Shown piece by piece: positions 10,540-63,800 of a DNA stretch of 64,000 nt. The notes under the pieces are model-generated. The model did not search any database and was not told the origin of the DNA. It was given only the letters and a program-made list of their open reading frames with translations. The DNA is from Bacteroidales bacterium. Its GTDB lineage: Bacteria > Bacteroidota > Bacteroidia > Bacteroidales > UBA3824. The stretch spans positions 4,674 to 68,673 of the forward strand of contig JAFXUC010000089.1 of NCBI GenBank assembly GCA_017535325.1. The letters run 5' to 3'. The translations under genes and the position numbers were made by a program. Positions within the stretch are counted from its first letter, which is position 1. Each line of letters opens with the position of its first letter.

Positions 10540-10552
10540 AAAAAACTTTTGT

Positions 10553-10560: not shown

Positions 10561-10643
10561 CTAATAATTTAAATGCAAATTTCTTGCCTTGTTTAGATTT
10601 TTTTACATTTTAACATTTTTTAATATCCAAGCGGTTAAACTAT

Positions 10644-10671
10644 AAAAAAAGACCGCCTTACGCAGACGGTC
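10644..10671 (-). terminator. Rho-independent terminator after rpoD
   Basis: The minus strand reads GACCGTC-TGCGTAA-GGCGGTC (7-bp stem with one G-U pair, 7-nt loop) followed by TTTTTTT. It lies 44 nt after the rpoD stop (10715). Confidence 0.7.
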
Positions 10672-10714
10672 CTCCAAAAACAAAAACCTAAAAATTATGA
10701 ATAAATAAATTTTT

Positions 10715-11575: not shown

Positions 11576-11661
11576 AACTCTATATAAATATATCCTAAAA
11601 TTTTGTGCTTGTAACTACTTGCACCATTTATTCTAAACGTAATTTTTGAAAAAAAGTTTCA

Positions 11662-11669
11662 CAAAATTA
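11662..11669 (-). promoter_or_regulatory. Candidate -7 promoter box for rpoD (TAATTTTG on the minus strand)
   Basis: Exact TAnnTTTG match about 87 nt upstream of ATG 11575. A weaker TATATTTA lies closer to the start, so the assignment is tentative. Confidence 0.25.
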
Positions 11670-11767
11670 CAGTTTTTTTTGGTGATATTATAAAAAATAA
11701 CGTTTTTTAAGAATTTATACCAAAAATTATTCCTTACTTTGCCGTACAAATTAAAATTTTAATTAAT

Positions 11768-12082
11768 ATGAACGAAAATTTACAAACACAAGACGGCGAA
11801 ATCCAAATTATTTCGCTGAAAGACGAAGACGGTAACGATAAAGATTTTGAGATTCTTGACGAACTCGAATACGAAGGTGTTAATTACTGCGCTCTTATGC
11901 CCTATTACGGCGACAGCGAAGACTTGGACTCTGAAAAAGAGGAAGACACCGACATCATTATCGTCCGTTTCTACAAGGACGAAAACGGCGAAGAGTATTG
12001 CGAATCAATAGAGGACGACGACCTCTTTGACAAAGTAGCCGCACTTTTCGATGAAAGAATCGAAAAAATGTACGAAGAATAA
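11768..12082 (+). CDS. DUF1292-family small acidic protein
   Basis: 104 aa with the typical DUF1292 pattern: IISLKDEDGNDKDFEILDELEYEGVNYCALMP ... IIIVRFYKDENGEEYCESIEDDDLFDKVAALF. Confidence 0.75.
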   Translation: MNENLQTQDGEIQIISLKDEDGNDKDFEILDELEYEGVNYCALMPYYGDSEDLDSEKEEDTDIIIVRFYKDENGEEYCESIEDDDLFDKVAALFDERIEKMYEE

Positions 12083-12094
12083 AAAACATTTTTA

Positions 12095-12124
12095 AGGGGA
12101 TTTTTTAATCCCCTGTTTTTTTCA
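12095..12124. terminator. Hairpin plus T-run between convergent genes (likely bidirectional terminator)
   Basis: AGGGGATT-TTTT-AATCCCCT (8-bp stem) followed by GTTTTTTTT on the plus strand and preceded by an A-rich run. The stop codon of the minus-strand gene (12105-12107) sits in the loop. Confidence 0.6.
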
Positions 12125-12758
12125 AAAATTCCGAAATTTCCGCGTTAAGAGATTTGATGTGCATTTCCGACATTTGGTCTTTATTAAGAGGCAAACCAAG
12201 AAAATTAGTAGGGAAAAGCGAAAATCTCAACTGGAAAAAATGCGACATCAAACGCGCCATGCGGTAATTTGCAACGCTCCAGGGCAGGAGTTCAAAAATC
12301 TCGAAATACGCCTCAAAGGTCAGCATATATTTTTCCCACGGCTGCATATCCTGAACATTCTGACATTTTATATTCATCTGTTCGCAAAAGTCGCTTAATT
12401 CCTGAGTCTTAAAACATTCCCTTCCGCTTTCGCAGTCAATGTATTTGGTACACAAAAGCCAAAAACCGTTGACATCGTTAAAAGTCAAAACTTTGTTTGT
12501 TTTAGCAAACTCCGAAGCCGCCTTATACGCGCGGAAAAGTCCGTAAAGCATTTCATAATCCGACAAACGGCTTGGCGTGGAGGTACAACCCGTTTCAAAA
12601 AGCGTCTCAGCCCCCTCCTGCCCTATTTCCGCGCCGGAGAGAACCGCACTTTGCCAAACAATCTTGTAAAGATAGTTTTTCATGTAACCGTCCTGGCTGT
12701 CTATTTCCAAAGACTTGAATTTGGCGTTGGTATTATAAAAATCCGCTTCTATACTCAT
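12105..12758 (-). CDS. Hypothetical protein, Fic/DOC-like fold with a degenerate active-site motif
   Basis: 217-aa ORF. LPWSVANYRMARLM aligns with the Fic motif HPFx(D/E)GNGRxxRLL but has Leu for the catalytic His and ANY for GNG. An upstream SAVLSGAEIGQEGAETLFETG resembles the Fic N-terminal xIEGxxLTxxE segment. The coding call is firm, but the family call is by eye. Confidence 0.5.
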   Translation of the reverse strand: MSIEADFYNTNAKFKSLEIDSQDGYMKNYLYKIVWQSAVLSGAEIGQEGAETLFETGCTSTPSRLSDYEMLYGLFRAYKAASEFAKTNKVLTFNDVNGFWLLCTKYIDCESGRECFKTQELSDFCEQMNIKCQNVQDMQPWEKYMLTFEAYFEIFELLPWSVANYRMARLMSHFFQLRFSLFPTNFLGLPLNKDQMSEMHIKSLNAEISEFLKKTGD

Positions 12759-18800: not shown

Positions 18801-21800
18801 CTTGTTAAGCGGTGATGCGGAAATTGCAACCTCATCGCTACAATAATCTTCAACAGGAGCAGCCGAAACTTGAATGCTCTTATTCTCAACGTTGGTAGTC
18901 TTAGTAATCTTACAACTCGGATCGCGGTCAACCGTTACTGTCCAAGTCAAGATAGTAGAACCGCGTCTTGCACCGGAATACCTCGTAATATTAGATTCTG
19001 AATCAAATATTGAGAACTCTGCATATTCAGTACCTTTCTTCATAGCCCAAACACCGTGCGTTCCTGCTTCGAGTGCGCTTGCCTCAATCTGACCGTGGTC
19101 GTCGCAACTGCTGAAATACTGTGAAACTGATACTTTCGGAGCAATGTTGTTAATCGTAATTGAAGAAGAACCTACACAACCGCCTTGTGAGCGTACTTCC
19201 CAAACAATCACGTTTTCACCCTTATCCAAGTCGGTAACTTTGGTCTGCCAGTTGGTTTTGTTAGCAACCTGACCACCACCCTTGGTTACTTTCCACAAAC
19301 CGGTGTAATCATGATTTGCAGGATTTTCGGTTGCAGACAAATCATATTCGTAACCGCAATAGTCATCAACTCTCGTATTCGGAAGTTGCGCACTTGGTAT
19401 CAAGTAATCAACAGTGATATTAGTAGCGTCAGAACATCTGCCGTTAGTAACAGTCCATGTAAACGAGTTCTTGCCTTTGTTGAGGTTGTCTACCCTACTG
19501 TTGTACAATGTTTCGTCTGCGATGGTAACATCGTTAGAACCGCTCCATGTACCGGTTTCACCTGTTTTGAGGATACCATTCAAGTCTGTGAAGTTATCGC
19601 AGGTTGTACCGTCCTGAGCCTCTGCAACAACCTTGCTGCTCATTACAACAGCGTAAGCATCGTGAGGACAAGCATTCTTGGTGTATGTCCACTTCAAGTT
19701 GACAGTAGCACCCGCAGCAATGTTAAGTTTTGCATTCGGATTGGTAGTCTGATCATCAGCAATCCAGCCTTCACCAGACTCTACCGTCCAATAACCTGAA
19801 CCGACCGAGTAACTTGTAGCCTGTAACGTTACATAATCGTTACACAAAGGCTGTGTTCCTTTGATTTTGTAATTACCGTAGTAGTACTTGCCGTCACCGC
19901 CGTCAGATACTTTCCATTCTTTGCCGCCTGCGCTGAGGTTGAAGCCGTTGTTGACAACCGTTACAGCCTTGCTGTCTTCACACTTAATACCGCCGCGGTC
20001 AATCTTAACGTACCAGATATACTTCTCGTTGAAGTCAGGTTTAACACCGTTGACCTCGGTAACAGCAGCCTTAGAGTCTCTCATTACGCCCTGGTTAGAC
20101 GGAGTAGCCGGTTCCCAATGACATTCAGCCTCGCTGAGTGCCGTTGCTTCAAGCATTACGTTGTTGCCCGTACAAGTATTAATGGTTTCGTTAGTAACCT
20201 CAGCCTTAACTTTGTTAGACCTTACGCTGACAGTCTTAACATCAGTACACTTCTCGTTAACCGTGCTTGTTACTGTCCATTTCATTGTTGCAAACGCGTC
20301 TACTGCAAGGTTCTTCAAAGTTATGGTTGAACTTTCAGTATCACCTTCAACAATTACATCGGTCTGGTCGTCTTTGGTCCATTTACCTGTGCAACCGCTC
20401 GGCAATACAGCCTGCAATGTATATTCATCGCTGCAAGTGTAAATCTGGTTGTGTTCGTCAACGTTTGCAATAGAGGTTTCAACTCTGTTGCTTACGATTG
20501 TTACCTCATCGGTGAGAGAACATTCGCCCTTAGATACCGTCCAGTAGAAGGTATTGGAACCCTGAGACTTCTTCAAACCGCTGATTGCAACTGACTCTGC
20601 GGTAGAAGAAAGAACTACGTCTGCCGAGAAGGGACTGCCCTTAGACCACTCACCCGTAGAACCTGTGCCTTCAAGGTTGTTGGCTGTAAGGGTCTCCTTG
20701 TCGTTACAAGAGTAGATTATCTTCTTGCCTTCATCGTTCTTAGCAACGTTGATTTCGGCTTTAACGGTGTTGTTGACAACCGTAACCTTGTCAGTCTTAA
20801 CGCACTGGCCTTCGCTTACCGTCCAGGTAAATACCGAAGAACCGGCGGGCAAATTCTTAACCCTTGCGTTGGCAACCGTCTTGTCGTCCAAAAAGATGAT
20901 GTCGTCAGAAGGTGCTTTCCAAACACCCGTTCCGCAATATGCTTCGAGTGTAGCCGGGTCAACAGCGTTGAGTTGAGCCTCGCCGTCACAACTTTGAGCA
21001 ATAAGACCGACTCTTGCCAAAACCTGATTGTTGGTAATTTCAATCTCGTCGGTTGTAGAACATTTATCTTTCTTAACAGTGAAGGTAAATGTATGTGTAC
21101 CCTTATCAAGTTTCGTTACCGTTACAACGTTGGTGCTTGCATTAGGAGCAAATTCAGCGTTGCCGGTCAACTCCCATACGCAGGTCTCGCCTTCTTCGAT
21201 GTTGGCAGCCGTAAGAGTGAGCGAACCGTCGCAAATCTCTTTCTCTGCCGTCAACCTGTCGGTAATAATAGTAGCCTGAGAAGGATCGTTGTTGATAATC
21301 TTGACACTTACAGGATTGCTGCAAGTCTTTTCAGAGCCTGCTTTCTTAACCGTCCAGAATATTTCGTTCTCACCCTTAATCAAGCCGGTAACATTAGTTA
21401 TCGAAGATGTTGAATTAGAGAACTGAACAGTCTTGTTGTTGCATGACCACTCGCCGATAAAGCCGTCGGGCAAAGTACCAGTCAAGTCGTTATAAGTATC
21501 GCCGCAGATCTTCAACTCACCAGAAGGAACTTTCGGTATTCTCGGCGTATACTTGAAGTTGGTAACAACTGCCTCAACCTCATCGTAACAAGAAGTCAAT
21601 ACATCGTCGTAAATTCTCCAAATAAGGGTTGCCGAAGCATTTTCGTCAACACCGTGGTAAACAGCGTCAGCAGACAGAGTAGAAGCAACTTTGTTGTCCG
21701 CGCTTCCGAAGTATCCTGAATAAGACTCTGCTTTCTTGTACCAGTAACCCTTCATGTCGTTTCTGTCTTTGTTGGCATGGAGTTCAAACTCGCCGTCGCA

Positions 21801-24800
21801 AGACTCGTAAGTAGTCTTAGCCTTCGGGAGCGGCTTGCGGTTGTAAAGCGTTACGTAATCCGTAGCAGTACACTTGTCGCTGCCTGTGCCGCGCTCTTCT
21901 GTCCATGTCAAAGTAGCATTCTCGCTGAATGATACATATACCTTGTTAGAGGTTGTGTTGTCATCCTTGAAGGTTACTCCGTCAGAAGCCGTCCAGTATC
22001 CTGTGCCTACCAAAGTCTGAGCCTCAACAACGATGTTGTCCTGACCGCAGACATTGCGTGTCTTGGTTGCGGCTTCGAGGTCGGCGTCAACCGTGAAGGT
22101 CTTGTCGTATACCGTTACCGTAGAAGAAGACTCACAGAAGCCGTCCTGAGACGTTACAGTCCAAGTGAACTTATAGTCGCCGCCGGCAAGGTCAGTTACC
22201 GGAGTCTTGTAAGTCGTCGGACTTGCGATAGTATATGTACCGATATTGTCACCGGTCATCGTCCATTTACCTGTTGCATTGTAATTGAGGTCGCTTGCAT
22301 CTGCCTCCAAAACTGTCTCGTGTTTGCAAACCGTGAGAGATCCACCAGCGTGAGACTCAACAGCCGAGTTGACAAACGTTACAGGATCAGACGGTAAGAT
22401 TGCGCAGTTTCCGCCCTGAACATTCCAGTAGAAACTTGTTGTACCGTGCGGTATGCCTTTGACTACAATGCTTTCCGTGCTTACGTTAGACGGCATTGTT
22501 ACCTCGTCGGGACGGTTGCATGTCCACCAGCCGGTTGCACCGCTTTCAGCAATGCTGCTTGCTTCGAGAGTGATGCCTTCGTCCTTATTGCTGTCGTAAC
22601 AGATTGTTCCGCCGTTTGTAAGAACCTCAGCCTTGTAAGAAGTATTGGTAATAGCAACACTTACAGGTATCTGACATTCAACATCCATATCAGGACGTTT
22701 CTTTCTGTATACCGTCCAAGTGAAGGTTGTCGTAGTATTGGGTACGAGGTTCTTAACAAGTACCTGATTATTTGACTTCTCTTGGTCATAACCATTAGTA
22801 CCCCATGTAAGACCCTGAGCATCGGCTTTCCATTCGCCTCTGTCTTTACCGTCAGCAGCCTTTGCAGAAAGCATGATGTAATCCTCGCAAATAGTCTTGC
22901 TTTCGGTGTAGATTACAGGAACGTCAGGCAAATTGTTGGTGATGACAACAGCCTTAGAGTCTTCGCACTGGTTAGCAGTTCTCTTAACGTGCCATACAAA
23001 CTTAGTACCTTCGTTCTTCAAGCCCTTAACCGTAACGTTCGGGTCAAGCGAACCGTCAGTGTATTTAGAATTTTCAGTGTAGAACTCTACGCCGCTGACT
23101 GCATTCCAGTAACCTGTTGCGTCATCCGGTTTTGTAGCGTTCATCGTGTAAGAATCTGTACACTCGGTGTAATCGTTAACACCTGCCGTAAACTCGCTGT
23201 CTTTGAACATATCGTTAACAACCGTTACATAATCATGTTTGGTCGGGCAGTTAACAATTTCATTATCGTTAGCGTCTTTTGCTGCGTAGTATACGTTCCA
23301 AGCAAACGTGTAAGTACCTTTGGCAGTAAGACCGCTTACCTTTGTAGTATAGTTAGAAGCACTTGCAATTACGCTCTGGTCGATTACATATCCCTCAGGA
23401 GCGTCAATAAGCGTCCAGTAGCCCTTAGCGTTGCCGCTTACGTTCTGTGCTTCGAGCGGCGTTGTCATCAGACCGTCAGGCGAACAAATCGTGATGTCTG
23501 AGGTAACAACTTTTGCAGTTACGTTCTGATTAGCAACCTTGATAACTCTTTCATCGTGGCACTTAGCACCTTTACGTACCGTCCATGTGAAGATGTCGCC
23601 CGTTGACGGAATGTCGATTGCCGTTACAGAGAACGCTGATGCCGCCGTCAAAGTCTGACCGTTTACGACAAACTTGGAACCGTTCTGCGACGTCCATTCT
23701 CCCGTAGAACCCGGATATTTCTCGTAACTGTTAACAACTTGAAGATTAATCTCGTTATCCTTGCAACTGTAAAGGTTGAGGTCAGGAATGTTGCCTGCTT
23801 CAACGTAGTTGTTAGTAATCGTTATAGACGCCTCGCTCTTACAATAACCTTTCTCCAATGTCCAAACGAATACATTATTGTTAAGATCAAGATTATTATA
23901 GGTAACAGAGGTTACGTCGGTTGTTGCACCTTTTGCAACAGCACCGCCCCAAGTAGACCATGTACCCTTTACCTGACCCTTATCAAAGTCCGCCTCATCG
24001 AACTTGTCGGTTGTAAGAGTGATAGTGTTGTCGCAAGTTTCGGTTTCAGCCTTGATTCTTGCCTTAACCGGGTTGTTGTTGGTAACGGTCAAATCAGCAG
24101 TGTATTCGCAGTGTTTGCCGTCTACAACGCCGTCGGAAGTAACAGTCCAAGTAAATGTGTTAGGACCTCTTTCGAGAGCAGCCGTTACAGTAAGGCTTGA
24201 CTCGTCAAGCGCGGTGATTGCACCGTTCTTGTCTGATGACCACTTACCGGTGTAGCCGGTTTCAGGCATTGTGGCTTCAAGGTTGATTTCGGCATCGCAA
24301 GTAGTTGTTATGCCGGTCGTGGTTGAAACCTCAGGCTTGAAGTTGTAGTTGGTTACATAAGCCTCTACAACATCGCTACATTCAGTAAATTCGTTGTCGG
24401 TAACAGTCCAGAGCAACTTAACAGTGCTGTTGTCGTCCATACCGAAGAACTTAGCGTTTATGTTGGTCGTTGCCGAAACAGACTCGTCGAAGTAACCGTG
24501 AGCAGTTGCAACAGCCTTAGACCATACGCCGGTTGTACCGTCAGCAGCAGCGGTTGCAGTAAGTTTTGCAACTTCGCCGTTACAAGTAGAGTACAGTTTC
24601 GTAGCGTTAGCAACAGGTTTGCGGTTGTAAAGCGTGATAGAAGCCTCAGCATCGCAACCGTTATAATCCTCGTGCCATACAAGCGTTACGCCGTTCTTTG
24701 TAATACCGCCGGTTACATCAGTAATGTAGTTGGTCGGATCGCTTACTGTTACGCCCTGAGGAAGAATCCAATGACCTTTTGCACCGGTGTGCGGCAATGT

Positions 24801-27800
24801 AGCCGTCAAAGGTTTGTCAGCAGGAGTTGCCTCGCCGCAGACATAACGCTGTCTGCTGAACGGAACTTCTACACCGTTCTCAATTACAGGCTCGCCGTAG
24901 TAATCAGCGTATTCAACCGTAAAGCCGTTCTTATGAATAGTAACCTCGTCAGAGATTTCACAACCGTGTGCGGAAGTAACAGTCCACTTGAACTTGTAAT
25001 CACCCTCGGTCATACCCTTTATTACCGTGTGGTAATAGGTCGGACTTGCGATGGTTACTAATTCCTTGCTAACACCGCTTTCTATCGTCCACTTGCCGGT
25101 GCCTAAGGATGACGGGTCGCTTGCATTAAGACCGTCGTAATCAGACTTACACCATGTAACGTCGTTGCCTGCATTTGCAGAAACTTTCTCGTTGTTAACA
25201 GTGATGGTCTTCTGATGTTTGAGCGGGTCAAACGGACAAGGACCGTCAACTTTCCAAGTAAATACCGTAACACCGTATTTCAAACCAGATACGCTGATTT
25301 CGTTAGCAGAGTTAGAACCCTCATTAGTGAAGGTTACAGGATTAGAAGTCTCCCAGTGTCCGGGTACTCCGTATCTCTCCTGAGAATTTGCAGCAAGCAA
25401 GTTGTAAGCAGCACCGTCTTTTGTTATCAAGGTGTTGTCGCAAGTCAAGATGCTGGTTTCGCCCTCAGGAACAGCCGTTAAGATTTCAGCCTCGTAATCC
25501 CTGTTGGTAACCTTGATTTCGGCTCTTGAAGTACACTTGCTGCCGGTGCCGTTTGCTCTTTCAACAACCCAAGCAAAGGTTGCTTCGGAATTAGCAGCCA
25601 AACCGCTGATTTCAACTTTGTTGGAGTTAGCATCTTTTGCTGTTACAGTACCAAACAAGTACTCCCAGTGTCCTGTGCCTTCGCTTACAGCCGTTGAATT
25701 AAGTTCGTAAGGCTGATTACAGATAGCGATTTCAGAGCCTTCTTCGATTACAGCCTCGTCAACGGCGTTGTTCTTAATCGTTACCTTGTCAGAAGCCGTA
25801 CAACCTGACGGGTTGGTTACCGACCAAGTGAAGTTGTTAGAAACTTTGTTGCTGAGACCGGTTACCTTAGTAGTAGCCGAAGAAGCGTTCTCAAACTGAA
25901 CCTCAGTGTTAGCCGTCCAAAGACCTGTCCAGCCCTCCTTCAAAGCGGTTGCTTTCAACTCGTACTCGTCAGAGCAGTTCTGACCGTTGATTACGGCAGT
26001 GTTGGCATCAGAGCCGGCATTTACGGTGAACTCTCTGTTTTCAACAGTGAACGTGGTAGAAGTTGTACAACTGTTGACAGTAGTGCCGTGAACAACCGTC
26101 CATGTGAAGGTTGCAGTAGTACCCGGTTTCAAGAAACGGTATGTTGCCGATTTGCCTTCTGCGGTGGTAACTCTTACATTGGAATCAGTACCGAATGTAC
26201 CGCTTTCAGCATCCACGGTCCAAACACCGTGTGTATTTCTGTCGGTCAAATCGTTGGTTGTCGTCATCATAATGCCCTTTGCGCCGTCGCTGGTAAAGTC
26301 TTTGTCAGCAGCGGCAAGAGCCGTATATTCATCATTGTATATCGTGATGTCATCATAATCCTCACAAGCATCGTTCTTAACAGTCCATCTGAGGGTTACA
26401 CCGTTGTTGGTAAGACCGCTTACAGATGTAATAGCCGCAGTTGAATTGTCGAAGGTGATGTAATCGGCATTCTTAGGATTGATAACTTCCCAGTACTGCT
26501 CGGTTACGCCGCTCGGCAATGTTGAAGCGTGGAGTTCGTAAACTCCGCCGCAAGCACTTGCTGACTTGCCGTGTTCATTGTCAACATTAACGTCAGCATC
26601 AACAGTGAACATTGCGTTGGTGATGTTGACAACAGCAGCCGTGTCGCAGACATGCTTGTCATTAATCTCTCTGTAAACATTCCATGCAAACGAGTACTGA
26701 CCAGTCTGTGAAAGACCGTTAACAGTAGTTGCTGTTTCAGTAGAATTTGCAATTACAATCAACTTAGAATCCTCGATACGTGTATCAGGATAAGTTCTAA
26801 GCGTCCAGTAACCCTTAGCATCCTCACCGTACTGAGTAATTGATGTTGCCACCAAATCTACGCTTTCACCGCAAATTGAGTTCTGATCGTTCTTAGCCTT
26901 AGCCTCGGCAAGTACACTGTGGTTAGCGATTGTTACCTCGTAACTGTCATGACAATGACCCTTGTAAACCGTCCAAGTGAAGATTTCACTATTGTTAGGT
27001 TTGATTCCGCTAATCTTAATTACTGAACTTTCAGAATTATCTATCGAAGCGTTTTTGCCGTCGGTCTTCATTGTCCAGCGTCCGTAAGCCGAAGCACCGT
27101 TGTTTACAACCGGGTCTTCTGCCGACAAGGTGTAAACGCCGCCGCAAGTGTAAGCGTCTTCGGGTTCTGTACCCATGTGAACCTTGTTGTTGACAACGTT
27201 GATTGTGCTTTCTACATAACACTTGTCATGTCCCGTGCGGAAGATTCTCCAAGTAAGGAGGTTGTCGTCAGCACTCATGCTTGTAAGCGTTACAAGTGAA
27301 GATGCCGAGATACCGTCCTTGAACGAACCGCTGCGGTTGGTGTACCAGTAACCTTCTACATTGTCAACAACAGGTGCTTTTGCTTGAAGTTCCTGGTTAC
27401 CGTCGCAAGTTTCAACTTCCTGACCGGCGTTGGTCAAGATTTCGGGATAACCAGGATGGATATTGTCGATGGTTACCTCTGTATAGTTGTTGTTACACTT
27501 GTCGCCGGTGGTGTTGAGAACCGTCCAACGGAGAGTGTTGAGACCAAATTCAAGACCCTTAACAGTTGTCTTAGAATCGTTAACACTTGCGAAGGTTACA
27601 TCAGAAGATGTCGTACAAGACCATGTTCCGATAAAGCCTTCCGAAGGCATTTCACCGCTGACAACCGTGTCAAGACCGCAAACCTCAGGAGCGACATAAA
27701 TCGTCGGTTTGTAGTAGTTGTTAACGAGTTTTGCGTAATCGTATGCGGGACAGTCTTTCTCTACGCCGTCAGTATCGGTAAACTTAGAGGTTACAGTCCA

Positions 27801-30800
27801 AACAAGTTCTACCGAAGAGTTACCCGGTATGCCGGAGTAAACTGCGTCGTACTCGTCAACCTCGCTTGCACTATTGCCGTTGAACGAGCCTTTCAAAGTC
27901 GGAGACTTCTTAGACCATACGCCGTGTGTACCAGTAGCAACCGTCTTAGCGTTGAGAGTTACTCTGCCGTCCTCAGCACAAGTGTAGTAAACCTCTTTGC
28001 CTGCATCTACGATAGTCGGCTGAATGTTGTTAAGAGTAATCTTATCCTCAGCCGTACAACCCTTAGAAGTTGCATGCCATGTAAGTGTTGCCGTAGTGTT
28101 AACACCAAGGTCAACAGTGATGTCGTAGTAAGACGGGCTGTTGATAACAACCGTGCCGTTGTTGGGCGATACTGTCCAGTAACCTTCGTATTGAGAAGCG
28201 ATTACACTTGCAGTAGTACCGCAAATTGCGCGTTTCTTTGTTGCATCGTCTGCGGTGTTGTCTGCGTCAACAGTAAAGCCGTCAGCAGAAATTTCAACCT
28301 CGTCAGAAGCCTTACAACCCTTGGTTACATTGCCCTGAGCATCCACAGCATAATGTTTTGAGTAAACAGTCCATGTAAACTGGTATGCACCTGACTTCAA
28401 GCCTCTAACCGTAGATATATATTTCTTAGAATCATCAAATACAACCTGCTCGTAATCTACGCCGCCGGTACATTCCCAAACGCCGTGACATTCTGACTTC
28501 GGAGTTGTAGCAGTCAATGACTCGTATACGCCGTTGCAAGTAAAGCCGTCGTCGCCTGCATTGGTCGTAAGAGTTTCGTTGATAACAACGATTTCAGCCA
28601 CAGACTCGCTGCATTTGTGTTCAGCGTCCCAAGCATGCCACTGTAAGGTTGTAGAACCGTAAGGCAAGTTTTCAACAGTCATCATGTATGAGTTGGTGTT
28701 GCTTGCAAATGTAGCCTCGTTGCCGGTCTCATTTGTCCACCAGCCATTAACACCGTAGTCAGTCAAAACGTCGTTTGCCTGGAGTTTTATCTTATCCGAG
28801 CAGATAACGATTTCCTTAGACTCTTTTGCATTAACAGCAAACGGTACTGTAATATTAGCCTCATACTTCATATTCTTAACAGTAACCGAAGCCTCTGAAC
28901 GGCACTCTTCGCCGTTGCCGTTAGGACGAGAAATTATCCATGTGAATTTCTGATCCTGATTAGCAGCAAGGTTAGTTACAGTAATAATATTTGTAGTATA
29001 GTTACCGGTTGTATATCTAATCTGAGCCGGTGGCTCCCATCTGCCTACGCCTTTGCCTTCGGGATCGTTAGCATTGAGGCTGAGTTCATCACCGCAGACA
29101 ATGTTGCTTGCAAGCGGAGTGATGGAAGCCTTCTTAACCTGATTGTTGGTAATGGTTACCTCTCTCTTGTCTTCACAGCCGTTTGCATTTACTGTCCAAG
29201 TGAAGACGGTCGGCGTAGTATTGTTCAAAGCAGATACTCTTGCATTCGGATTGGTGCTTGCTGTTTCGCCGTCGGTGTAAACAAACGACTGTTTAGCCTC
29301 CCATTTACCGGTTGCACCTTCAACACCTTCGGGATAAGTACCCTGCAATGTGTAAGTACCGTCGCAAGACGCGTTAGCATCGTTGCCCGCCGTGAAACTG
29401 AATCTGTTGTTGGTTACGCTGAACTCTTTCGTAGTCGTACAAGTATTGTTGTTTTCCTTGTGCGTCAAAGTCCACTTGAAGGTTACGTTAGCACCGTTAG
29501 GCATATTGTAGAACGTTGCCGTAGAGCCTTCTACCGAGTAAACCTTTTCTTCGGTCTCACTAAACGAGCCTGATGTAGCGGTTGTTGTCCAAGCACCAAT
29601 CAAGTTGTCGTTCAAAGCGTTTGAAGAAGTCATCTTTATTGTACCGTTGCAGGTTGTCGGGAGAGCAGAAACTGCCGGTGTTACGCTGTTGTTGTAAACC
29701 ACGATTTCTTTCTCGTCTGAGCAACGATCCATAGTAACGCTCCAAATGAATCTCTTACCGAGACCGTCAAGACTTGTAAGGCTGAGTACCGAATTGGTGC
29801 TTACAACCTTTGTGCGGTCTTCGCCGGAGTACCATACGCCGGTAGCGTTTTCAGGAAGCATCGGTGTAATCTCAATGTTGTCGCCGCAGACACTGATGAT
29901 TTCGCCAGTTCTTACAACGTCCTCACGGTTGAAACTTACAGCAGCGTCAACCTCAAACTTGCCGCGGGTTACAACTACCTCGTCGTAAGCATGACAGATG
30001 TTGCCGTCAGCGTAAACCTGACCGTTCTTGTCTTTCTCGGTAAAGCCTTCAACGTGCTTAGATACCGTCCAGCGGAACTTGTAAGAACCGGTTGCAGTAA
30101 GACCGGTTGCAAGTACGCCGTTGCTTGTAGCAGCAGGCTCAAATTCGAGAGTAGACAAGGTTCTGCCTTCGAGAGTCCACTGACCGAATACATCCTGACC
30201 GTCGCCCTCTGCCGTGCCGTATGCCGACAACGGATCTGCGTAGAGGTTAACCTCGTCGCCGCAAATCGGAATTGCTTTCGGGTGAACGTTCGGGATAACC
30301 TGATGGTTGGTTACCGTTATGCTTTCGCTTGCAACGCAAGTGCCTTTCGTTACAGTCCACTTGAACTGCTCGGAAGTGCCGGCTGCGATACCGCTGACAG
30401 TTACATCGTAAGAAGAAGACTCCTCACCGAAAGAAATTCTCTTAGAGAGAGACTCCCATTTGCCGGTTGTTACGCCGGTGTTGTGAGCAACGTTGTCAGC
30501 AGCCTTCAAATTGTAAGTGCCGTTGCAAGTGTAAGCCGTTTCAGGAATCTTGTTGCCAAGGTTAACGGTGTTGTTGTTGATTACAACCGTAGTTGTATTG
30601 TCGCACCATTCGTAACCCGGACGGAAGATTGTCCATGTAAACGTGTTGGCGTCTTTTTCAAGCAGTGCCGTTGATTTGTTGATAACGAGGTTGGTTGTCT
30701 CGCTTACGTAAGCACCTTTCTGAATTACGCCTCTGTCATCAGACCATCTGCCGGTTACGCCTAACTCAACGTTTTCAGCCCAAAGTTCTACAGTACCGTC

Positions 30801-54800: not shown

Positions 54801-57800
54801 TGCGCCAAGTTGTGCATAATTGTCGCAAACGGTCTGGTCTGAACCTGCCGATTTCTGATTGAAACCGAAGTTGTAAACAGTTACTGTTTTCGTGTTGGTA
54901 CAAGCGTTAAGCGCGTTTTTGTCGCTGACTACAACCCATTTCAATTCTACCTGCGAATTGTCGCCCATACCATTGAATGACGATGCAGGATTATTTACGT
55001 CAATTCCGTCGATTCCTGATACGGGAACATCCCAATATCCAACTGCGGGATCGGTCGGCAGAGTAGCCTGCAATTTGCCAGTACCATCGCAAGATACAAT
55101 CTCAGGCTCTGCCTGTGCTTTTACGCTCTTGTCGTTGATGGTCAAATCGCTTTCAGCAGTACAGCCGTCTTTATGAACTCTCCATGTCAACTTCAAAGTC
55201 TTGTCAATGCCCGAAACATGAGCATTGTAGAGCGAACTATTGGCAGTGAAAGTAACATTGCCCGGACTCTTTTTAATCCAAACTGCATACTCACCGTTTG
55301 CCGCATCCAAGTCTCCGGGAGACATTGCCTCCAAATCGGTCTCGGTATCGCAGATGTTCATAATGTTTTCATCATTTCCGGTATAAGCGTCAACAGTAAA
55401 TGTATTGTTGTTTACATAAACGTCAACGTAGTCAGGATCGCACTCCTCGCCGAATTTGCCGTTCTTTACCGTCCAACGGAAAATATATGTACCACCCAAA
55501 TTGAGACCGCTTGTAATAGTTACCTGATTATTGTTGTTGCTTGAATATGCTTTATCTGAGAAATAAGAATTTAACTCTTCCAAATCAGAAACAGCAGTGC
55601 TGTTATGAGCCTGAATACAAGACCACTGTCCGACAGCATCAGGGAAGTTTTTCAACGACTGACCTGTAAGAGTTAATTGTACGTTTCCACTTGAAGGATT
55701 ACAGATAACAATATTCTTTTTGCCCTCAACAGAGGCTTTAAGTTGGTTGTTGACAACAGTCATAGAGTGAGAATCTTCACAACCTACGGTAACCTTGTTG
55801 CCGTCTTTTTTCGTAAGTTCAGTTTCATATTTTACAGTCCATGTAAACTGAACACCACTCGCCTGAACAGGAATATCGGCAACAGAAACATCGTAATCAC
55901 CTTTTGCATTCAGTTTTGTACCCGCAGTTATAGACGAACCGTTGCGGGTAACAGCAGAACTTGCAGTCCAATATCCTACATACTCAGCACCCGGAACAGC
56001 CGGAGTCGGAGTCGGAAGGTCGTATGTTCCGTCGCAAGTATAATCCTTTTCCTTTGAAAGTTCGGTAGAAGCACCGTTGTAATAAACCGAAACTGACGCA
56101 TAATCAGTACAAGTATAGTCTCTGTCATGACCTTTGGAAGTACGAGTAACAGTCCATTTATAAGTGTTAAGACCGTTCTGCATGCCGGAAACGTTGGTTT
56201 TATTGTCATCAGCCGGAGTAAACGTACCTGCGCCGAACGTCATAACACTCCATGCTCCACTCTCGGTGGTATTTGCAACTGCCTGAGCGGTCAATGCAAC
56301 AGAACCGCTGCACGTATAGTAGTAATACTGCTCATTGCCATCAGCATCATCAGCCAACTGAACAGGTGCATTGTCAGTGTCAACACCGATAATCTTAGGC
56401 GTGGTTACAGACGGATTATAAAAGACAACCTCAGAAGTGCTGGTACAACCGTCAGTATAAGTTGTTATATTGCCTGCATTGTCCTTAACAGGTATTTTCT
56501 CTTTAACAGTCCAGAGGAAACGGTTTGCCATTTGATTGCTGAGTCCGGAGATACGAGCGTTTGATTTACTCTTATCGCTTTCTTCAATAAGCCAAGAACC
56601 GGAAATCTTAGACCACATACCTTCATATCTTGAATCGGCAACGCCGCCTTTTGAAACAAGTTGCGCATTCATCTCACGATAATCAACACCGCAATTCGTT
56701 GTGAAATCACTGCCTGCCGAAGTTTCAAAATAGTTGTTGGTCAGCGTAACCTCATCTTCGTTGGGACAATTCTCGTTTACAGCCGAAGCAGCATACGGAC
56801 GGTCAACGTGCCAACGCAGCGTTACACTCTGACCCGCTTTGATACCTGAATAATAAATTATATTCGAGGTAAGTTGTTCACTGTCGGTAATTTTGTTACC
56901 GTTTGCATCGCAGAAATATCCGGAATACAAATCGTCATAATAAGGTTCGCTCCATTGTCCTTTAAGAAGGTTGCCTTCACCGCCTACCGTAGGAACAGAC
57001 GAAAGTTGGATTCTCGTTGTTCCGTCGCCGTTGTCGCAGATAGGACCTGTTGTAACCTGCGTAGCCTTAGTATCAGGTTTAACATTGTAAAGTGTTACCT
57101 CATCAGATTTCGTACAGCCCATAGAACTCGTTACCGTCCATCTGAGCGTTACTCCGGAAGCAGGTATATTTTTAATCTCAGGTCTCTTGTTGGGAGAGTT
57201 TGCAGCAGTACCTTCGATGGTCGTGTTAGTACCCTCGGTCAAAATTTCCCAAACACCGTTTGCAATCTCGTTGTCTGACAAAGAAACCACACCATAAGGA
57301 GAATAAGTGTCGCCGCAAACATAAATATTGTCGCCGCCTCTGCCGTCAGCGTCAATGGTGAAACTCTGATTGTTGAGCATAACGGTCATTTCATCGTTAC
57401 ACTCGTCCCAATCAATACGCCATTTGATTTTATAAAGACCGCTGGTGGTCATACCGTCAAACTTAGCCACATAATTGGTAGCATTGTCGCTGATTGATAT
57501 GTGTCCGGGAGTCAAACCCTCATTAGTCGGAACTGAGGTTACTTCCCATTTGCCGGTTGCATCCTTGCTGAAATCCGCTTTCGGATTATTGCCGGTCAAA
57601 GTAATGTAAGTGTCGCAAAGAGGATTGTCTGCAATGTAAATATTGCCGTTTTCATTCTTTGTATTCTCCACTACGGCATTAACACCCTTGTCAGCAATTA
57701 CATACTTCTGAACTCCGTGACAAATACCCTTTGTCAATGTCCATGTGAAAGTTGCGCCGCCGTTAATCATCGACTTCGTAATCTCCAAAGTAGACTGGCT

Positions 57801-60800
57801 GCCCAACACAGAAGCAGATTTCGTAGATGTCCATTCGCCCGTTACAGTGTAATTGCCGTAACTGTAAGCCTCAGGATTATAGCCTTTGAGAGTGTGTTTC
57901 TCGTCATTAGACTTCAAGCAATAAGTAGCCTCCGAATTCAAATCCTCGGGCTGAATAGTTATCTGATTGTTGTGAATCGTAATAGACGACTCGCTGTAAC
58001 AAGACTCGTCTTTCTTAGAGTACGTTCTCCAATAGAATACATTGTCGTTGTTGGCAAGATTTCCGAAAGTAACAATATTAGCCGTACTTGCAAAACCGTC
58101 TTTCAATCTGCCGCCCTGCTCGGTAGTCCAAAGACCGTAATCGCCGAGAGAACCCGGATCAACCTGCGAAGCAGACAAATCAACCTCGTTTGTACAAACC
58201 TCGTCGCTCTGACGAGAAGAAATCTTAGCCTCGGTCGGATAATTATAATAAATGCTTACAGGACTTGACGCATTAGGACAGTTGGTAACGCCTTTTCTAT
58301 GAATTGTCCACGTAAATTTGTTTTCGCCCTTGTCTTTCTTGGCAAAAGTTACGACAGTAGTAGACTCGTTGGGCGTAGCAAGAGCAGCACTTGAAGAAGT
58401 CCATGTACCCTCCCAGTCATCACCGGGCAACTGACCTTCAAGCGTATAAGTGTCTTCACCTCTATAATGACAAAGCATATCGGACATCACACCCGGATCA
58501 ACATGTCTGTAATTGTTGTTTACGATGGTAACTTCTTTGCTGTCATGACATTTTGCATTGTCTGTTTCAACATACCATATAAAAGTTACCACAGCACCGT
58601 CGGCAATATCCGTAACGTATGTATTATTTGCATCTTTATCTTCAATTTTACCTGATGCAGCCGAGTTTTTCGGCAACCACCAGCCTTTTGCGGGAGAAAC
58701 AACACCGCTTGCAGACAAAGGCGCACGGTCTGTATTGTCCTTGTCGCAGAAATTAACTGTTTCAGAAGAAACAACTGCGTCTACAAATTCGTTCTTAATG
58801 GTGAACTTGTCCCAAGTCTCGCAGCCTGCTGCATTTGTAATGTGCCAAGTAAGACTCTTTTCCTGTCCCTTGGGAACGCCGGAAACATAGGCATTGGCCT
58901 GATGTATAGCATCAGAAGACTCGTTGTTGATATGACCGTCAATAGAGAGACCTGCATCCAAATCTTCCCAAGTACCAATAACTCCGACACCTGACAATAC
59001 AGTACCGTTAAGTTGAATGTGGTTTATATCGCACTGGGTAATAACCCTTACGTTTTCAGATTTTATACTTTCGTTTGAAACTTTAACCTCCTCTTCGTCA
59101 GTACATTTTTTATCAGGATCTGTTTCAGCGTAATCTTTCTCAACAAACCAGCGGAAAGTATAAGTACCGGGCGTGGTAAGACCGGAAACACCCGAAACAT
59201 AATTGTTCGGAGAACCGATCTTAATACCGGTTGTGGCATCGCCCATAGCAGTAGGCCAGCCTACCAACGACCAAGTACCGCGTGCCTTAGAGCCGTAAGT
59301 CTGAGTTACGTTGTTTGCATAAATAGTAGCATTTTCGCCGCAGGTGGTAAGTTCTTTATCTCCGGTGATGTGCGCCTCTACATGGTTGTTGTAAAGCGTT
59401 ATTCTGTCTTCTTTGGCCTCGCAACTGCCTTTCTGTACATGCCAAACCAACGTAGCCTGACCGTCATTGGCCGTGCTTACGTTGACACTGATGTTGTAGT
59501 CGGTGGAAGTGCCTTTTGTATAAGAGAAATTGCCCTCTTCAAGCGACCACCAGCCTGTTGCCTTTGTTTCAGTATTGTCGTCGTAATCAGCAGGATTATT
59601 TGCTACCAAAGTTATACCGCCGTTGCAGTCGGTTCTGTTGAACTCTTTTGCACCGATTGTGGCAGCAACAATATTCTGATATACGGTAACATCTGTCTGT
59701 TTAGCACAAGTCTGACCGTTAAGTTCTCTTACAACCCTCCAAGTATATGTTGTTTTACCTTTGTTAATTCTCGTTACCTGAGTATCGCTGCTGTGAACAA
59801 GCGCGATAGAACCGCCGTTGTTGGAAGACCAGGTACCTTGAATAGTACCCAATCCCTCGTCCGGGGCAGCGGGCTTTGCTTGAAGCGAAACCTCGTCAAC
59901 GACACAAAGCGTTTTGCCGTCGGCAGGACTGGTAATCTCTGGATCGTCAGGCTGAGGATTGTAAATCTTAAATTCCTCTGTACCCTCACAAGCCTTCTTA
60001 CCGTTTACGTAAACGCTCAAAGTCCAACGGAAAATATTAGCCATCGTATTAGACAAGCCGGTAACATGCAGTTTGTTGCTGTTTACTTCAAACGCCATGT
60101 GTTTTCCCGAAAACTGTGTCCATTCACCGCTGTATGTAATTGCATTGCCGTATCTGTCGGTATAATTCTGGAATACCCCGCCTTCCATATCTGCAACGTC
60201 AGAACACTCAGTAGTGATCTCGTGAGGCGCAGGCATATCAAAATGATAGTTGTGGATACTTACCTCGGCAGAAGTCTTACAGCCGCCGCCCAATGTCTTG
60301 CCGGCGTTGTTGAATTTCTCCTTGCTTTCTACGTTCCACGTATAAGTTACATCACCGCCGGCAGGAATATTTTCAACCGTTACGGTGTAATTTGTAGACT
60401 CAGCAGCCTCGTTTCTGATGTTGCTTCCGTCGCTCAAATGTGTCCAATGACCAGAGCCTTTTGCCGGATCTACAACAGTACCCTCAATCTCAACAGTGCC
60501 GTCGCATGAGAAATATGCGGGATTTTTCTGTTTTGCAATAATAGGTTTGATTCTGTCGTCATAAATAGTAACATCGTCCCACGCAAAACATGCAGCATGA
60601 GACTTGTCTTCGGTAACCTTCCAGCGTACAACAGTTCCTTTGCCGGTAAGACCGGTAATTGTTGCATTCATATTGGAAGAATAACGTGAGTCGCCGTTGC
60701 TTATATCAGCACCGGCAAAACGTCCGTCGCCGTCAATAACATGCCATTCAACCTTTGAAGGCACTGTCAACGGATTGTTAGGATTGAGCGTATATTTGTC

Positions 60801-63800
60801 ATCGCACCAATAAACTGTATTCGGGTCGTATGTCTGATCGGCATCAACAGTAAACGAATTGTTGGTAATCTCAACCTCGTCTTTAACCTCGCACTTAGAT
60901 GTCTTACCCGGCAAAGCCACAGACCAGCGTATTTTGTATTTTACGCCCGGAGCAGACAACGCCTCCATATCAGTTATATAATTGTTAACCGACTTGATTA
61001 CTATGTCGCCGCCGTCTTTGTCTTTTCCCAAAAGAACTGCCCATGTACCCTGAGCATTTTGATGATACATATCATCGTTGCCGGTAATTGTAATTTTCGG
61101 CTTGCAAATGTCCGCCGTTTTAACGGTTTCGTTGCCGGTAAATGTAGTTACCACATTATAGTTGGTTCCAATCTCAGGAGTTTCAGTATAACTGATGCTC
61201 TTAATATGAGCCTCCATGTGGTTGTTGTCGATAACAGCGTATGCCGTATCAGAACAAATAAAATCAGTATTGTTTTGTTTGGTTATCTTGTTGGTAACCG
61301 TCCAGATATAATGATTTTCGCCGGAAGGAATGTTGGTAACTTCCGTATAATTTGAATTCGGATTGGCAATGCCCGTTTTTAATCCGCCCACGTATGACCA
61401 AGAGCCCGAAGCAGACGAACCGTATTTTACTTTCGGGTCTTTCGCGGAAAGATGCCACTTGTCATCACAAGTCTCATAATATTTTTCAAGAATTTCATGG
61501 TCTATGTGGTTGTTAATAACATAAACACGGACACGTTTTTCGCAGACAGGACCTTTGCCGTCCTGAGCCCTATATGTAAGAACCCAGTTGAATGTAGATT
61601 TTCCAAGCGGCAGGTTGTTGATCTGTGTCTTGTCTGACGAGGGACTTACTATAGTACACGTTTCGCCTCTTTCATTGCCGATAAACTCCCAATGACCTTC
61701 GCCTATCGGGTGCGCACCAGCCTGCAAAAGATACTGACCGTTTTTGTTTTCCTGAACGTTGGAAGAATATTTCTTTCCGGTAGTTCCTACCGTCCATTCA
61801 GGATTCTGACATGTATATACATAATACTCATATTTCTGTTTGCCGTCTTTGTCCAAATATACCCTCTCAATTCCGCCGACTTCAATTTTTTCGTCGTAGT
61901 AGTCGATTTTCGGATCATCAGGCTCGCTGTTGATTACTTTCATCTCGTCAGTAACCCTACAAGTAGGATCTGTTGTACCTCTTGCATTTGATTCTGATAT
62001 GCTGTAATAAACACCGTCTTTCACGTATGCATTTGCATTAGTTGAAGTACCCCAGAATTTATATGGAGTAAGATCGCTGAGTTTATTCCAAACAGTAAGT
62101 GTTATAGGTGTCTCGCCCTGAGGTGCTTTATAAAAATATACATTTTTTACTGCATCGCCTGTCAACTTTTCATTAGCAGTTCCGCCTACACTTGCAGCAG
62201 CAGGCTGTCCAGTTGCAGTCAACGAAAGACCCGAACCGTATGCGTTGCCGGACTTGTTGAAAGACCACATACCTTCACCGTATTTCAAAGTCTGCGGCTG
62301 CAACTGCGTAAAGTCATCGGCATTGCCGCAAATATAAATATCAGGACCGGCATGAGACTCAACATGGTTGTTGTATACGACAACCGTGTCAGAAGCCTGA
62401 CAACCATAACGCGATACATTCCACTCAAATTTGTTTTCACCCTGACTAAGATTTGCAAAACGGGTGATGGCATTGGTTGCTTCCGTATTATACTTAGAAT
62501 CCAAAACCGCGCCGTCAGACTGCAAAACTTTCCACCAGCCGTGAGCATTCATAAACTGGTCTTCACAAACCGACTGAGTCTGGTTTGCAGGACAAGGATC
62601 CTCTCCTTTCAACTCGGCAGTAGAATCACAAACAATAAAGTCGTGTTTATGGTCAATGTCAAATGAGTTGTTGTATATCAAAACAACATCCTTGTCAATA
62701 CAATAGCCGTTGGATTTTCTACCGTTGGCAACCCAATTTGTTCTTGTAGTACTCTTAGCATTAACAGAATACACATCATATACATTCCAACCCGGAGCAC
62801 ACAATTGAGGATCCGCTGCTGAAAAATGTCGGTTGTTACCAAAACTATAAATTTCCGAATTAGCGATACGCGCCACCGTCCAAACCATCCTAACCGGATT
62901 TTTGTTACCGTTAGACTCAGGTATTCCGGAAATAGAAGCCGTATTATTCTTAAATTTTTCATAATGCGCATCAATTGTTGACTTTGCACCATTGGCGTTA
63001 CTTGCATTCCGTGTTATCGGTACACCCAAAGCAGCATTATTATCACCATTATAATTACCTTTGTTGTTTGCTGTACCAAGATATATTGGATTTCCATCTA
63101 CTTTAAGTTTGTTCAAAATCTCAAACTCATTCGTTGAAGTATTATCAACAGACCAAAAACCTACAAGCGTAAAATCGCCATGCGCTTGATCCGCAATCGG
63201 TTTTGCTGACAAAGTGAAATTATCCGTGCAAAGATTCCACACCTTTTCTCCCGTACCGTTGAGAGAAAGACGCGCATCACCATCCCTTGTCTCTGCAACC
63301 GCCTTTACACTGTTGTTCCAAATTGTAACATGTCCGATAGAGGTACATGCCTCACCGTTTTTACCCGTACCGTTTTGACTGTACAAAGTAAACACCGTAG
63401 GACCGGCAGGAAGATTTTTGACCTTTATAGAGCCGTTATCACCTCCTGATTGCCATTCTTTAACACCGTCACTATATGTTATTACATCATCATGATTTGA
63501 TGTAAGTTTGCCATAATTGTTAATCTTAGTCCAAGTCAACGCAGTTTCATCCGAACATACAGCATCAGATTCCAATCCGGCAGTACCTTTGGCATCTGCA
63601 ATGAATCTCGCAGTATCGGCAACGTTGATAGTATAATAAACTGTGTCCCAATCCCAGCAATAATTACCGTCATCTACAACCTTATTCAAACCCTCATAGA
63701 ACTCTTTACCTAAATTATTGCCATCACTGGGCAGATTAGGATTTTTCAACTGTTTTACAGCGTACTCAAAACCGTATATACCGGAACCTGTTGTACCGGA

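Follow-up and report, generated by a model that had tools for sequence, protein, structure and literature searches.

Titin, in which Ig and Fn3 folds are mixed, carries super-repeats of 7 and of 11 domains in its A-band part, with a period fitted to the 43-nm repeat of myosin. Bjorklund, Ekman and Elofsson (2006, PLoS Comput Biol, PMC1553488), who also cover the 7-module super-repeat of nebulin, show block duplication to be the common mode of domain-repeat expansion and note that it may help proteins to avoid aggregation; the typical duplication units comprise mostly 2-7 domains and are mostly eukaryotic. The only relative of the protein considered here with a solved structure is grappling-hook protein A (GhpA) of Aureispira sp. 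CCB-QB1 (PDB 9flp, 9fly, 9flw and others). The accessible sections of its preprint (bioRxiv 10.1101/2024.01.29.577165) present GhpA as a T9SS substrate of successive Ig-like repeats that forms a heptameric parallel bundle with a hook at the N-terminus and lateral inter-domain contacts. They give it a length of 5,898 aa and a stem of 52 'slightly varying' repeats, and a super-repeat is not mentioned in those sections. A keyword search of the literature returned no paper joining super-repeats to T9SS or to bacterial adhesins.

Layout of the gene and fold of its modules

The gene described here belongs to an uncultured Bacteroidota, probably one of the Bacteroidales, that occurs in ruminant-gut metagenomes. 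It forms a single open reading frame, uninterrupted by stops over 51 kb of the window (the whole 64,000-nt stretch of DNA that was analysed). The frame stays open 5' of the ATG at 63914 as far as position 64000, where the window ends. This probably places the true N-terminus beyond the window, and a signal peptide would be invisible; none was seen in the first in-window residues, the window starting inside the frame. The encoded protein comprises approximately 176 all-beta modules (172 by an HMM made from the protein itself, 176 with gaps included) of ~92 aa and two cysteines each, followed by PKD domains and then by a weakly scoring sorting domain of T9SS type B. The features are as follows:

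12879..63914, minus strand: giant ORF of 17,011 codons (open frame)
61125..63914, minus strand: irregular N-terminal part, aa 1-930, whose ~8 modules are weak or irregular and carry long inserts, outside the super-repeat (module segmentation)
53985..61124, minus strand: units 1-2, modules 9-32, aa 931-3310, very diverged (module classification, identity)
23505..53984, minus strand: units 3-11, modules 33-140, aa 3311-13470, nine clear copies of the 12-subtype block (module similarity)
26892..40355, minus strand: 24-module (two-unit) duplication, units 7-8 and 9-10 (module and DNA similarity)
20727..23504, minus strand: partial unit 12, modules 141-150, aa 13471-14396, 10 modules (register with the array)
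13722..20726, minus strand: non-periodic C-terminal tail, ~25 unique modules (151-176), aa 14397-16731 (no period in module comparison)
13065..13721, minus strand: PKD region with two Pfam PKD/PKD_4 matches, the best at aa 16849-16905, i.e., 13200-13370 (Pfam)
12888..13064, minus strand: probable T9SS type-B C-terminal sorting domain, aa 16951-17009 (TIGR04131 and CHU_C, below curated cut-offs)

The AF2 model of unit 8 (pLDDT 78.7, pTM 0.34; its inter-module geometry is unreliable) predicts all-beta beads on a string, with ~7 strands per module. Foldseek matched this model to Ig arrays; the best bacterial match was to GhpA fragments, at 16-19% identity, and titin I65-I70 was also matched. Among PDB sequences, GhpA was the sole match of the unit profile (E 2.8e-127, 9 stretches), and PF22352 matched the tail modules at 38.5 bits (cut-off 27). 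Judging from these matches and the predicted model, the modules are Ig-like beta-sandwiches of the K319L-like PKD type, homologous to the GhpA repeats. The N-terminal region (aa 1-930) gave no Pfam match and no homologue at E<=1e-8.

At the other end of the protein, both TIGR04131 (28.4 bits against a curated cut-off of 35, E 1.3e-6) and CHU_C (20-25 bits, cut-off 27) aligned to the last 60 residues, and orthologous C-termini carry precomputed PF13585 matches. With a sorting domain that scores below the curated cut-offs, a T9SS context is plausible but weak. The genes downstream encode a 217-aa ORF of no family, DUF1292, sigma-70, DUF6272 and SiaC-like proteins. No PorP/PorE-like gene (of the ghpB/C or sprF type) was found within 12.8 kb downstream, the one side covered by the window, and no T9SS components were found among the other genes of the window. 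In the ortholog L088, a TypA GTPase gene lies downstream.

The 12-module period and its layers

We confirmed a super-repeat over modules 9-150. Its block contains 12 distinct module subtypes and measures ~1,125 aa, or 3.37 kb. When the protein was compared with itself by BLASTP in 100-aa chunks, the summed score peaked solely at offsets of ~1100-1140, 2220-2260, 3340-3400, 4460-4500, 5600-5640 and 6740 aa, that is, at multiples of ~1,120 aa, in agreement with the off-diagonals near 1,110-1,180 aa expected in the first-pass annotation of this DNA. The mean normalised Smith-Waterman score reached 0.18, 0.19, 0.16, 0.15 and 0.14 at module lags 12, 24, 36, 48 and 60 over a background of ~0.105. 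In line with that annotation, the duplicated entity was a heterogeneous multi-module block. Modules at the same position score 0.182, compared with 0.107 at other positions (label-permutation z = 47), and for 110 of 142 modules the best match lies at the equal position in another unit (~11 expected). Adjacent modules, at 0.111, are no more alike than other non-cognate pairs, and the claim that a module resembles its counterparts elsewhere more than its own neighbours thus holds. How long a module is depends on its position in the unit (F=25.7, p=6e-24), the length of units 4-11 is 1125 +/- 10 aa, and some residues are invariant at particular positions alone (e.g., K1084-G1085, Y624/F626 and T898 in unit-alignment numbering).

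Both units that had been parsed by hand reappear in our segmentation with exactly 12 modules each (modules 10-21 and 93-104). The regular motif spacings reported at first were recovered in part: a regex search returned some of them (e.g., 3396, 3315, 3360, 3384, 3492 and 3444 nt), but the literal motifs are less regular than had been listed. Likewise, the 29-nt island described as identical near two units is exact at 33700, but agrees at 28 of 29 positions at 37015.

The array is shorter than initially proposed. It consists of 11 full units (23505-61124) and one 10-module unit (20727-23504), about 12 blocks rather than ~14. Unit 12 stays in register, but without two positions (2-3, module 9 being position 0). 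Units 1-2 share 22-25% aa identity with the other units and are too diverged for more than 10 of their 24 modules to be classified to the expected position. The modules before the first anchor had been assigned to positions 1-7, but none of the eight pre-array modules fits its extrapolated position. Neither can the proposed range of 19621-63578 be kept at its other end, where modules 151-176 (13722-20726, partly inside that range) show no period.

The hierarchical architecture is nevertheless borne out and goes deeper than claimed, from a hexad to the 12-module unit and further to a 24-module duplication. The youngest layer is formed by units 7-8 (33645-40355), which pair with units 9-10 (26892-33644): unit 7 shares 51% aa and 58% nt identity with unit 9, and unit 8 shares 41% aa and 52% nt identity with unit 10. 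DNA-level self-similarity is detectable nowhere outside 26892..40355. Local stretches of 64-78% nt identity amount to 11 HSPs, all inside 28.2-40.5 kb, at offsets of one or two periods. The earlier estimate of 60-75% nt identity between cognate stretches thus fits local HSPs in units 7-10, but not whole units, which share 39-58% nt and 22-51% aa identity.

At the oldest layer, weak similarity peaks appear at module lags 6, 18, 30, 42 and 54. In profile-profile comparison, lag-6 partners score 77.7 on average versus 61.4 for other pairs, a value reached by 5 of 20,000 random matchings. At the level of sequence profiles, these data show the 12-module block to be composed of two old six-module halves. 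One could go further and take the hexad as the basic unit, so that six-module blocks of types A and B alternate and 12 is the period of just one lineage. The lag-6 family of peaks and the significantly higher scores of lag-6 profile partners would agree with this, as would the ortholog L007, in which the hexads follow the order B A B / B A B and similarity is strongest at lag 18. However, lag 12 stands far above lag 6 in the present protein (0.18 versus 0.12, with a background of 0.105), and the similarity between corresponding positions of A and B now hardly exceeds that between unrelated ones. Moreover, the L007 sequence is a scaffold from short reads in which the frame is broken, and its hexad calls come from a noisy classification of modules of ~25% identity. 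We regard the hexad as basic unit as improbable.

Age, integrity and origin of the array

Comparisons between units gave pS of 0.66-0.78, i.e., saturation of synonymous sites, and dN/dS of ~0.2-0.5, in keeping with the initial view that the duplications are old. That view also held that they are not assembly stutter. It is true that public short-read assemblies break within the gene and that all orthologs found are fragments, as one might expect if the array were an artefact (a shorter repeat stuttered or collapsed by the assembler) or the gene a pseudogene. However, the units differ by 42-61% nt and their synonymous sites are saturated, so they are not assembler duplicates; the frame runs through all 17,011 codons without a stop, and dN/dS stays below 0.5. 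Furthermore, an independent metagenome contig from another sample spans units 7-11 collinearly, with 98.9-100% identity over 14.4 kb and a 16-N scaffold gap as its sole ORF break, and an identical fragment (P0040) is present in the protein database. We consider the chance of an artefact or a pseudogene practically negligible.

The family of this protein includes 6,110 representative relatives; for 1,427, the match reaches E<=1e-30. Other members show periods of 2, 4, 5, 6, 8 and 14, pointing to block duplication as common in the family. The 12-type order is kept in orthologs from different 50%-identity clusters (P0026, P0060, P0124, P0110, P0068 and P0002/L007). The fragment P0026 runs through 14 modules at consecutive positions, from 3 to 4, while passing from unit-7/9-like to unit-10-like and then unit-11-like modules; such jumps mean that whole periods are missing in it relative to the present array. 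L007 carries an 18-module duplication that places two like hexads in a row and breaks the 12 register. In L088 (~50% identical), the tail is collinear one-to-one with modules 151-176.

The first annotation likened the architecture to titin and suggested that the period may reflect a structural register. According to this interpretation, the 12-module period (or its six-module half) would have been selected to match a structural repeat, be it a multi-stranded bundle, helical or staggered, or a partner that attaches once per unit, and each position would have a role of its own. The module order kept in orthologs below 50% identity, the residues invariant at single positions, the position-specific module lengths and the near-constant unit length could all be read in this way, and in the solved homologue GhpA seven strands are bundled, their Ig-like domains touching laterally. 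Nevertheless, all of the favourable evidence is also expected from shared descent, and a strict register is found neither within the protein nor between orthologs. The protein tolerates a 10-module unit, L007 has its 18-module duplication with adjoining like hexads, the L088 array ends after position 6 and the present one after position 11, the number of units differs in P0026, and the periods of relatives vary. In a parallel in-register bundle of the GhpA type, in addition, each module touches its own copies, which makes a period unnecessary. The data thus do not support a fixed structural register, and we hold a titin-like functional register to be unlikely. Shared descent and in-register recombination explain the favourable evidence, and the titin analogy therefore fits the architecture, not the mechanism.

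In-register block duplication is, on the sequence data, the most likely origin of the array, a better explanation than a titin-like 'ruler' function. The array would have grown by tandem duplication of multi-module blocks via unequal homologous recombination between cognate modules. Since such recombination adds or removes whole periods, the register would be kept without selection for it. Purifying selection on the module folds, and probably on fibre length too, may then have preserved the copies long past synonymous saturation. Duplicating a heterogeneous block would lengthen the fibre while leaving neighbours dissimilar, which is expected to limit misfolding between domains. If an Ig-like module spans ~4 nm, the protein in its mature form could measure roughly 0.7 micrometres and one unit ~50 nm. 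Overall, we consider it likely that this gene, which exceeds 17,011 codons, specifies a GhpA/SprB-like fibre or adhesin, extracellular and very long, that originated in this manner.

The order in orthologs, the position-specific lengths and the units of 1125 +/- 10 aa nonetheless exceed what pure drift needs and leave room for a functional register. It is tempting to imagine the hexad/dodecad order as a selected structural code, whose position-specific surfaces would fix the lateral register or a ~50 nm one-unit stagger in a multi-stranded GhpA-like bundle ~0.7 micrometres long, or present one binding site per unit. We think this quite unlikely; if true, bacteria would have in this protein their first 'molecular ruler' fibre comparable to titin or nebulin.

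Comparison with known systems

The architecture is interesting, yet it is not a new kind of system. Both GhpA and the present protein are giant Bacteroidota proteins with successive Ig-like repeats and many cysteines. GhpA ends in a T9SS sorting domain and builds a fibre outside the cell; here, the sorting domain scores below cut-offs and the fibre is predicted. With at least 2.9 times the length of GhpA, the present protein also carries the 12-type super-repeat. GhpA has PorP/PorE homologues (ghpB/C) encoded downstream, whereas the present gene has none within 12.8 kb downstream, and glycosylation has been reported for every GhpA domain, whereas the O-glycosylation motif is depleted in the present protein.

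SprB, the gliding-motility adhesin of Flavobacterium johnsoniae (6,497 aa), is another giant repetitive Bacteroidota surface filament protein, with a type-B T9SS CTD, and relatives of the present protein bear the source name 'gliding motility-associated-like protein'. Unlike in the case of SprB, no sprF (PorP-like) gene lies within 12.8 kb downstream, and the host apparently comes from a lineage of gut anaerobes not known for established gliding. The Pfam SprB repeat (PF13573) had no match in the whole 17,011 aa at E<=0.01.

With titin and nebulin, the present protein shares a fixed order of distinct modules, tandemly repeated, in which cognates are closer than neighbours and neighbours have low identity. 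In contrast to titin, with its two folds and a period fitted to myosin, it has a single fold, and its register is not as strict as in titin and nebulin (the 10-module unit, the 18-module duplication in an ortholog). It has no evolutionary tie to titin beyond the Ig-like fold. Finally, like the repeat proteins analysed in PMC1553488, it shows autocorrelation of domain similarity with peaks at lags above 1 and duplications in the middle of the array; as a bacterial protein that exceeds 17,000 aa and has a 12-module unit nested in a 6/12/24 hierarchy, it stands at their extreme end.

The giant reading frame and its 12-module period

A single open frame encloses the whole range (19621-63578) in which the first-pass annotation had described about 14 copies of a titin-like 12-module block. 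By module positions, we found about 12 such units, namely 11 full ones and one of 10 modules:

12879..63914, minus strand: giant ORF of 17,011 codons
23505-61124, minus strand: 11 full units (aa 931-13470)
20727-23504, minus strand: partial unit of 10 modules, two positions missing
13722-20726, minus strand: about 25 modules after the array, in which no period was found

No stop codon occurs between the window edge (64000) and the listed ATG at 63914 (63915-64000, minus strand), and no signal peptide is visible among the first residues in the window. Thus, the true gene start probably lies outside the window, and the protein probably exceeds 17,011 aa in length. Thr, Val, Asn, Ser and Gly are enriched in it. 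In Pfam and NCBIfam searches, modules of the first 12,900 residues had no match, K319L-like PKD (PF22352) was matched on tail modules, and two PKD domains were found toward the C-terminal end. At the extreme C-terminus, a T9SS type-B sorting domain scored below threshold (TIGR04131, 28.4 bits, cut-off 35; CHU_C, 20-25 bits, cut-off 27).

A profile built iteratively from one module found 172 modules of about 92 aa (176 with four gaps counted); of these 176, 140 contain exactly two cysteines. When 100-aa chunks were compared with the whole protein by BLASTP, background similarity appeared at every module offset, with a clear excess only at about 1,120, 2,240, 3,360, 4,480, 5,620 and 6,740 aa. 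Mean normalised Smith-Waterman similarity rose at module lags of 12 (0.18), 24 (0.19), 36 (0.16), 48 (0.15) and 60 (0.14) over a background of about 0.105 at other lags. With positions within the unit assigned from module 9 onward, same-position pairs scored 0.182 and other pairs 0.107 (label permutation on same-position similarity, z = 47), and the best match was the same position in another unit for 110 of 142 modules, about 11 being expected. Module length depended on position (F = 25.7, p = 6e-24), and unit length was 1125 +/- 10 aa in units 4-11. The offset peaks near 1,120 aa and the excess of same-position similarity both bear out the proposed super-repeat.

For this periodicity, the tests to rely on are those of best hits and label permutation. 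Average-linkage clusters, which had been expected to follow position in the unit, did so poorly at exactly 12 clusters (ARI 0.16), because the old units are too diverged, but better at 30 (ARI 0.64). In gapless residue autocorrelation, where indels blur the signal, nothing stood out but the 92-aa module period and a faint peak at 1,117 aa; chunked BLASTP and module-index analysis were used in its place. The literal motif spacings reported earlier were not used as evidence; regular expressions recovered incomplete series. Seven modules before the first anchor had been said to fit positions 1-7, but none of the eight modules preceding the array fits an array position.

Divergence of the copies and public fragments

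Identity between whole units ranges from 22 to 51% for amino acids and from 39 to 58% for nucleotides; percent identities between modules from global alignments are rough figures only, since short aligned cores inflate them. In units 1-2 divergence is so great that no more than 10 of the 24 modules classify to the correct position, still far above chance. Between units, pS is saturated (0.66-0.78) and dN/dS is about 0.2-0.5. Only 11 off-diagonal HSPs were found at the DNA level, each at one or two periods, with 64-78% identity and all within 28.2-40.5 kb. The 60-75% nucleotide identity estimated by eye therefore holds for local stretches but not for whole units, while the 29-nt island noted near 37.0 and 33.7 kb was recovered exactly at 33700 and with 28 of 29 matches at 37015.

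An assembly artefact was rejected, the copies being far too diverged for assembler duplicates and the frame intact; the intact frame and dN/dS also speak against a pseudogene, a reading likewise rejected. Scaffold L001, from an independent metagenome in ENA, is collinear with 24163-38613 (units 7-11) at 98.9-100% identity. The reading frame on L001 is interrupted only by a 16-N scaffold gap at L001 1203-1257 (window 37343-37411), because of which the scaffold's gene calls are split into 431, 932 and 7,095 aa. Together with the saturated pS and the intact frame, this collinearity upholds the earlier view that the copies are old and not assembly stutter.

The N-terminal 958 codons (61125-63998, minus strand) had no homologue at E<=1e-8 among 5.8 billion proteins; for central and C-terminal pieces the same database holds identical (P0040) or orthologous fragments. 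Every ortholog found in public assemblies is a fragment ending at a contig edge, a warning that genes of this kind are systematically broken up in short-read metagenome assemblies. All matching public contigs came from ruminant gastro-intestinal metagenome assemblies. SufB reaches at most 76% identity, to Bacteroidales MAGs, and no relative turned up when unit 8 was scanned against the GTDB representative genomes.

Nested duplications and the meaning of the period

Weaker similarity peaks occur at lags 6, 18, 30 and so on, and in profile-profile comparison positions k and k+6 pair preferentially (77.7 vs 61.4; 5 of 20,000 random matchings reach 77.7). The 12-block thus arose by an old duplication of a 6-block. 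A later 24-module duplication shows in the pairing of units 7-8 with units 9-10 (51% aa between 7 and 9, 41% aa between 8 and 10). Thus, the architecture is real, old and more hierarchical than first described. The protein shows that a T9SS-type Ig-repeat fibre can lengthen by nested block duplication, from 6 to 12 to 24 modules, and remain intact although its copies have long since diverged to 22-50% identity.

It had also been proposed that, as in titin, the 12-module period may reflect a structural register. If true, bacteria would have their own equivalent of the titin and nebulin rulers. As a possible sign of constraint, ortholog fragments from different 50%-identity clusters keep to one common order of positions: 14 of 14 consecutive ones in the database protein P0026, 11 in P0060, and largely so in P0124, P0110, P0068 and P0002. 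Moreover, the non-periodic tail (modules 152-176) is collinear one-to-one with that of L088, an about 50% identical ortholog C-terminus (1-11296; ENA XIEF21-1_SAMN15830176 scaffold_5482). However, L088 exits the array after position 6 and the giant protein after position 11, and the latter itself retains a 10-module unit. Within P0026, unit-7/9-like modules are followed in register by unit-10-like and then unit-11-like ones, so that whole periods are missing relative to the window, which is the outcome that unequal recombination between cognate modules produces.

In the distant ortholog L007 (1-10460; ENA XIEF21-1_SAMN15829999 scaffold_9445; 37 modules), module-type order is kept, but internal similarity is strongest at lag 18 (0.265), with six-module halves arranged B A B / B A B. 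Such an arrangement indicates a probable 1.5-unit duplication that broke the 12 register. By lag analysis, other family members have clear periods of 2 (P0113, P0051, P0030), 4 (P0018, P0025, P0058), 5 (P0024, P0038), 6 (P0083), 8 (P0014, P0020) and 14 (P0028). No result obtained needs a structural register, which we regard as unlikely; the titin-like hierarchy stands and is deeper than described. The best-supported account is that nested block duplication would build the array, with in-register recombination and purifying selection on each module maintaining it. Repeats usually expand by duplication of several domains at once, and selection against aggregation may favour this (Bjorklund et al., PMC1553488); adjacent modules here are as dissimilar as any non-cognate pair (0.111 vs 0.107). 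A keyword literature search returned no earlier account of super-repeats, either for T9SS fibres or for bacterial adhesins, which is only a weak sign of novelty. As it stands, the array illustrates a known evolutionary process strikingly well and does not amount to a new mechanism.

Neighbouring genes, fold and relation to GhpA

Downstream of the giant gene lie:

12105-12758: 217-aa ORF, no family, no signal peptide
within 364-12758: DUF1292 gene
10715-11575: sigma-70 family gene
9400-10539: DUF6272 gene
after DUF6272: SiaC-like gene
364-2340, further downstream: TPR-SpoIIE phosphatase

This set resembles partner-switching regulators. Genes of the window other than the giant one have housekeeping or regulatory roles, and no PorP/SprF- or PorE-like anchor gene was found among them. 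Public matches to the 217-aa gene occur only on contigs of 5 kb or less; in L088 a TypA/BipA-like GTPase stands in its place, so synteny is not conserved there.

AlphaFold2 predicted unit 8 (11 units as alignment) as twelve all-beta beads; with pLDDT 78.7 and pTM 0.34, the predicted fold of each domain can be trusted, but not the way the domains are placed relative to one another. Foldseek matched the model to Ig-domain arrays (titin I65-70, DSCAM, contactins), the best bacterial matches being cryo-EM fragments of GhpA, the Aureispira grappling-hook protein (16-19% identity). The unit profile matched a single protein among PDB sequences, again GhpA (E 2.8e-127). The family is very large, with 6,110 representatives reaching E<=1e-3, many of them 4,000-7,600 aa long, and its few named relatives are labelled gliding-motility-associated-like or T9SS sorting-domain proteins. 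P0113, which has a near-identical two-module repeat, and its cluster are named 'NqrC' by JGI, which looks like a mis-annotation.

GhpA is described as a 5,898-aa T9SS substrate made of Ig-like repeats in succession; seven strands of it run in parallel to build a rigid 240-nm grappling hook, which is anchored near homologues of PorP and PorE (10.1101/2024.01.29.577165). GhpA is reportedly glycosylated on every Ig-like domain. In contrast, the giant gene has no PorP/PorE-like gene in 364-12758, and the Bacteroidota O-glycosylation motif D[ST][AILVMT] is three-fold depleted in its product (26 vs 83 +/- 8 in residue shuffles). We consider the giant protein to be a new, exceptionally long member of the GhpA-type Ig-repeat fibre family. 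Its one set of 12 module types in 11 diverged copies, together with the orthologs, forms a natural series usable to ask which GhpA-type module residues matter for fold, lateral packing or binding. At 17,011 residues or more, it is more than twice as long as the longest (7,609 aa) of the 150 best-scoring family representatives and about three times as large as GhpA and the gliding adhesin SprB, the relatives that have been studied.
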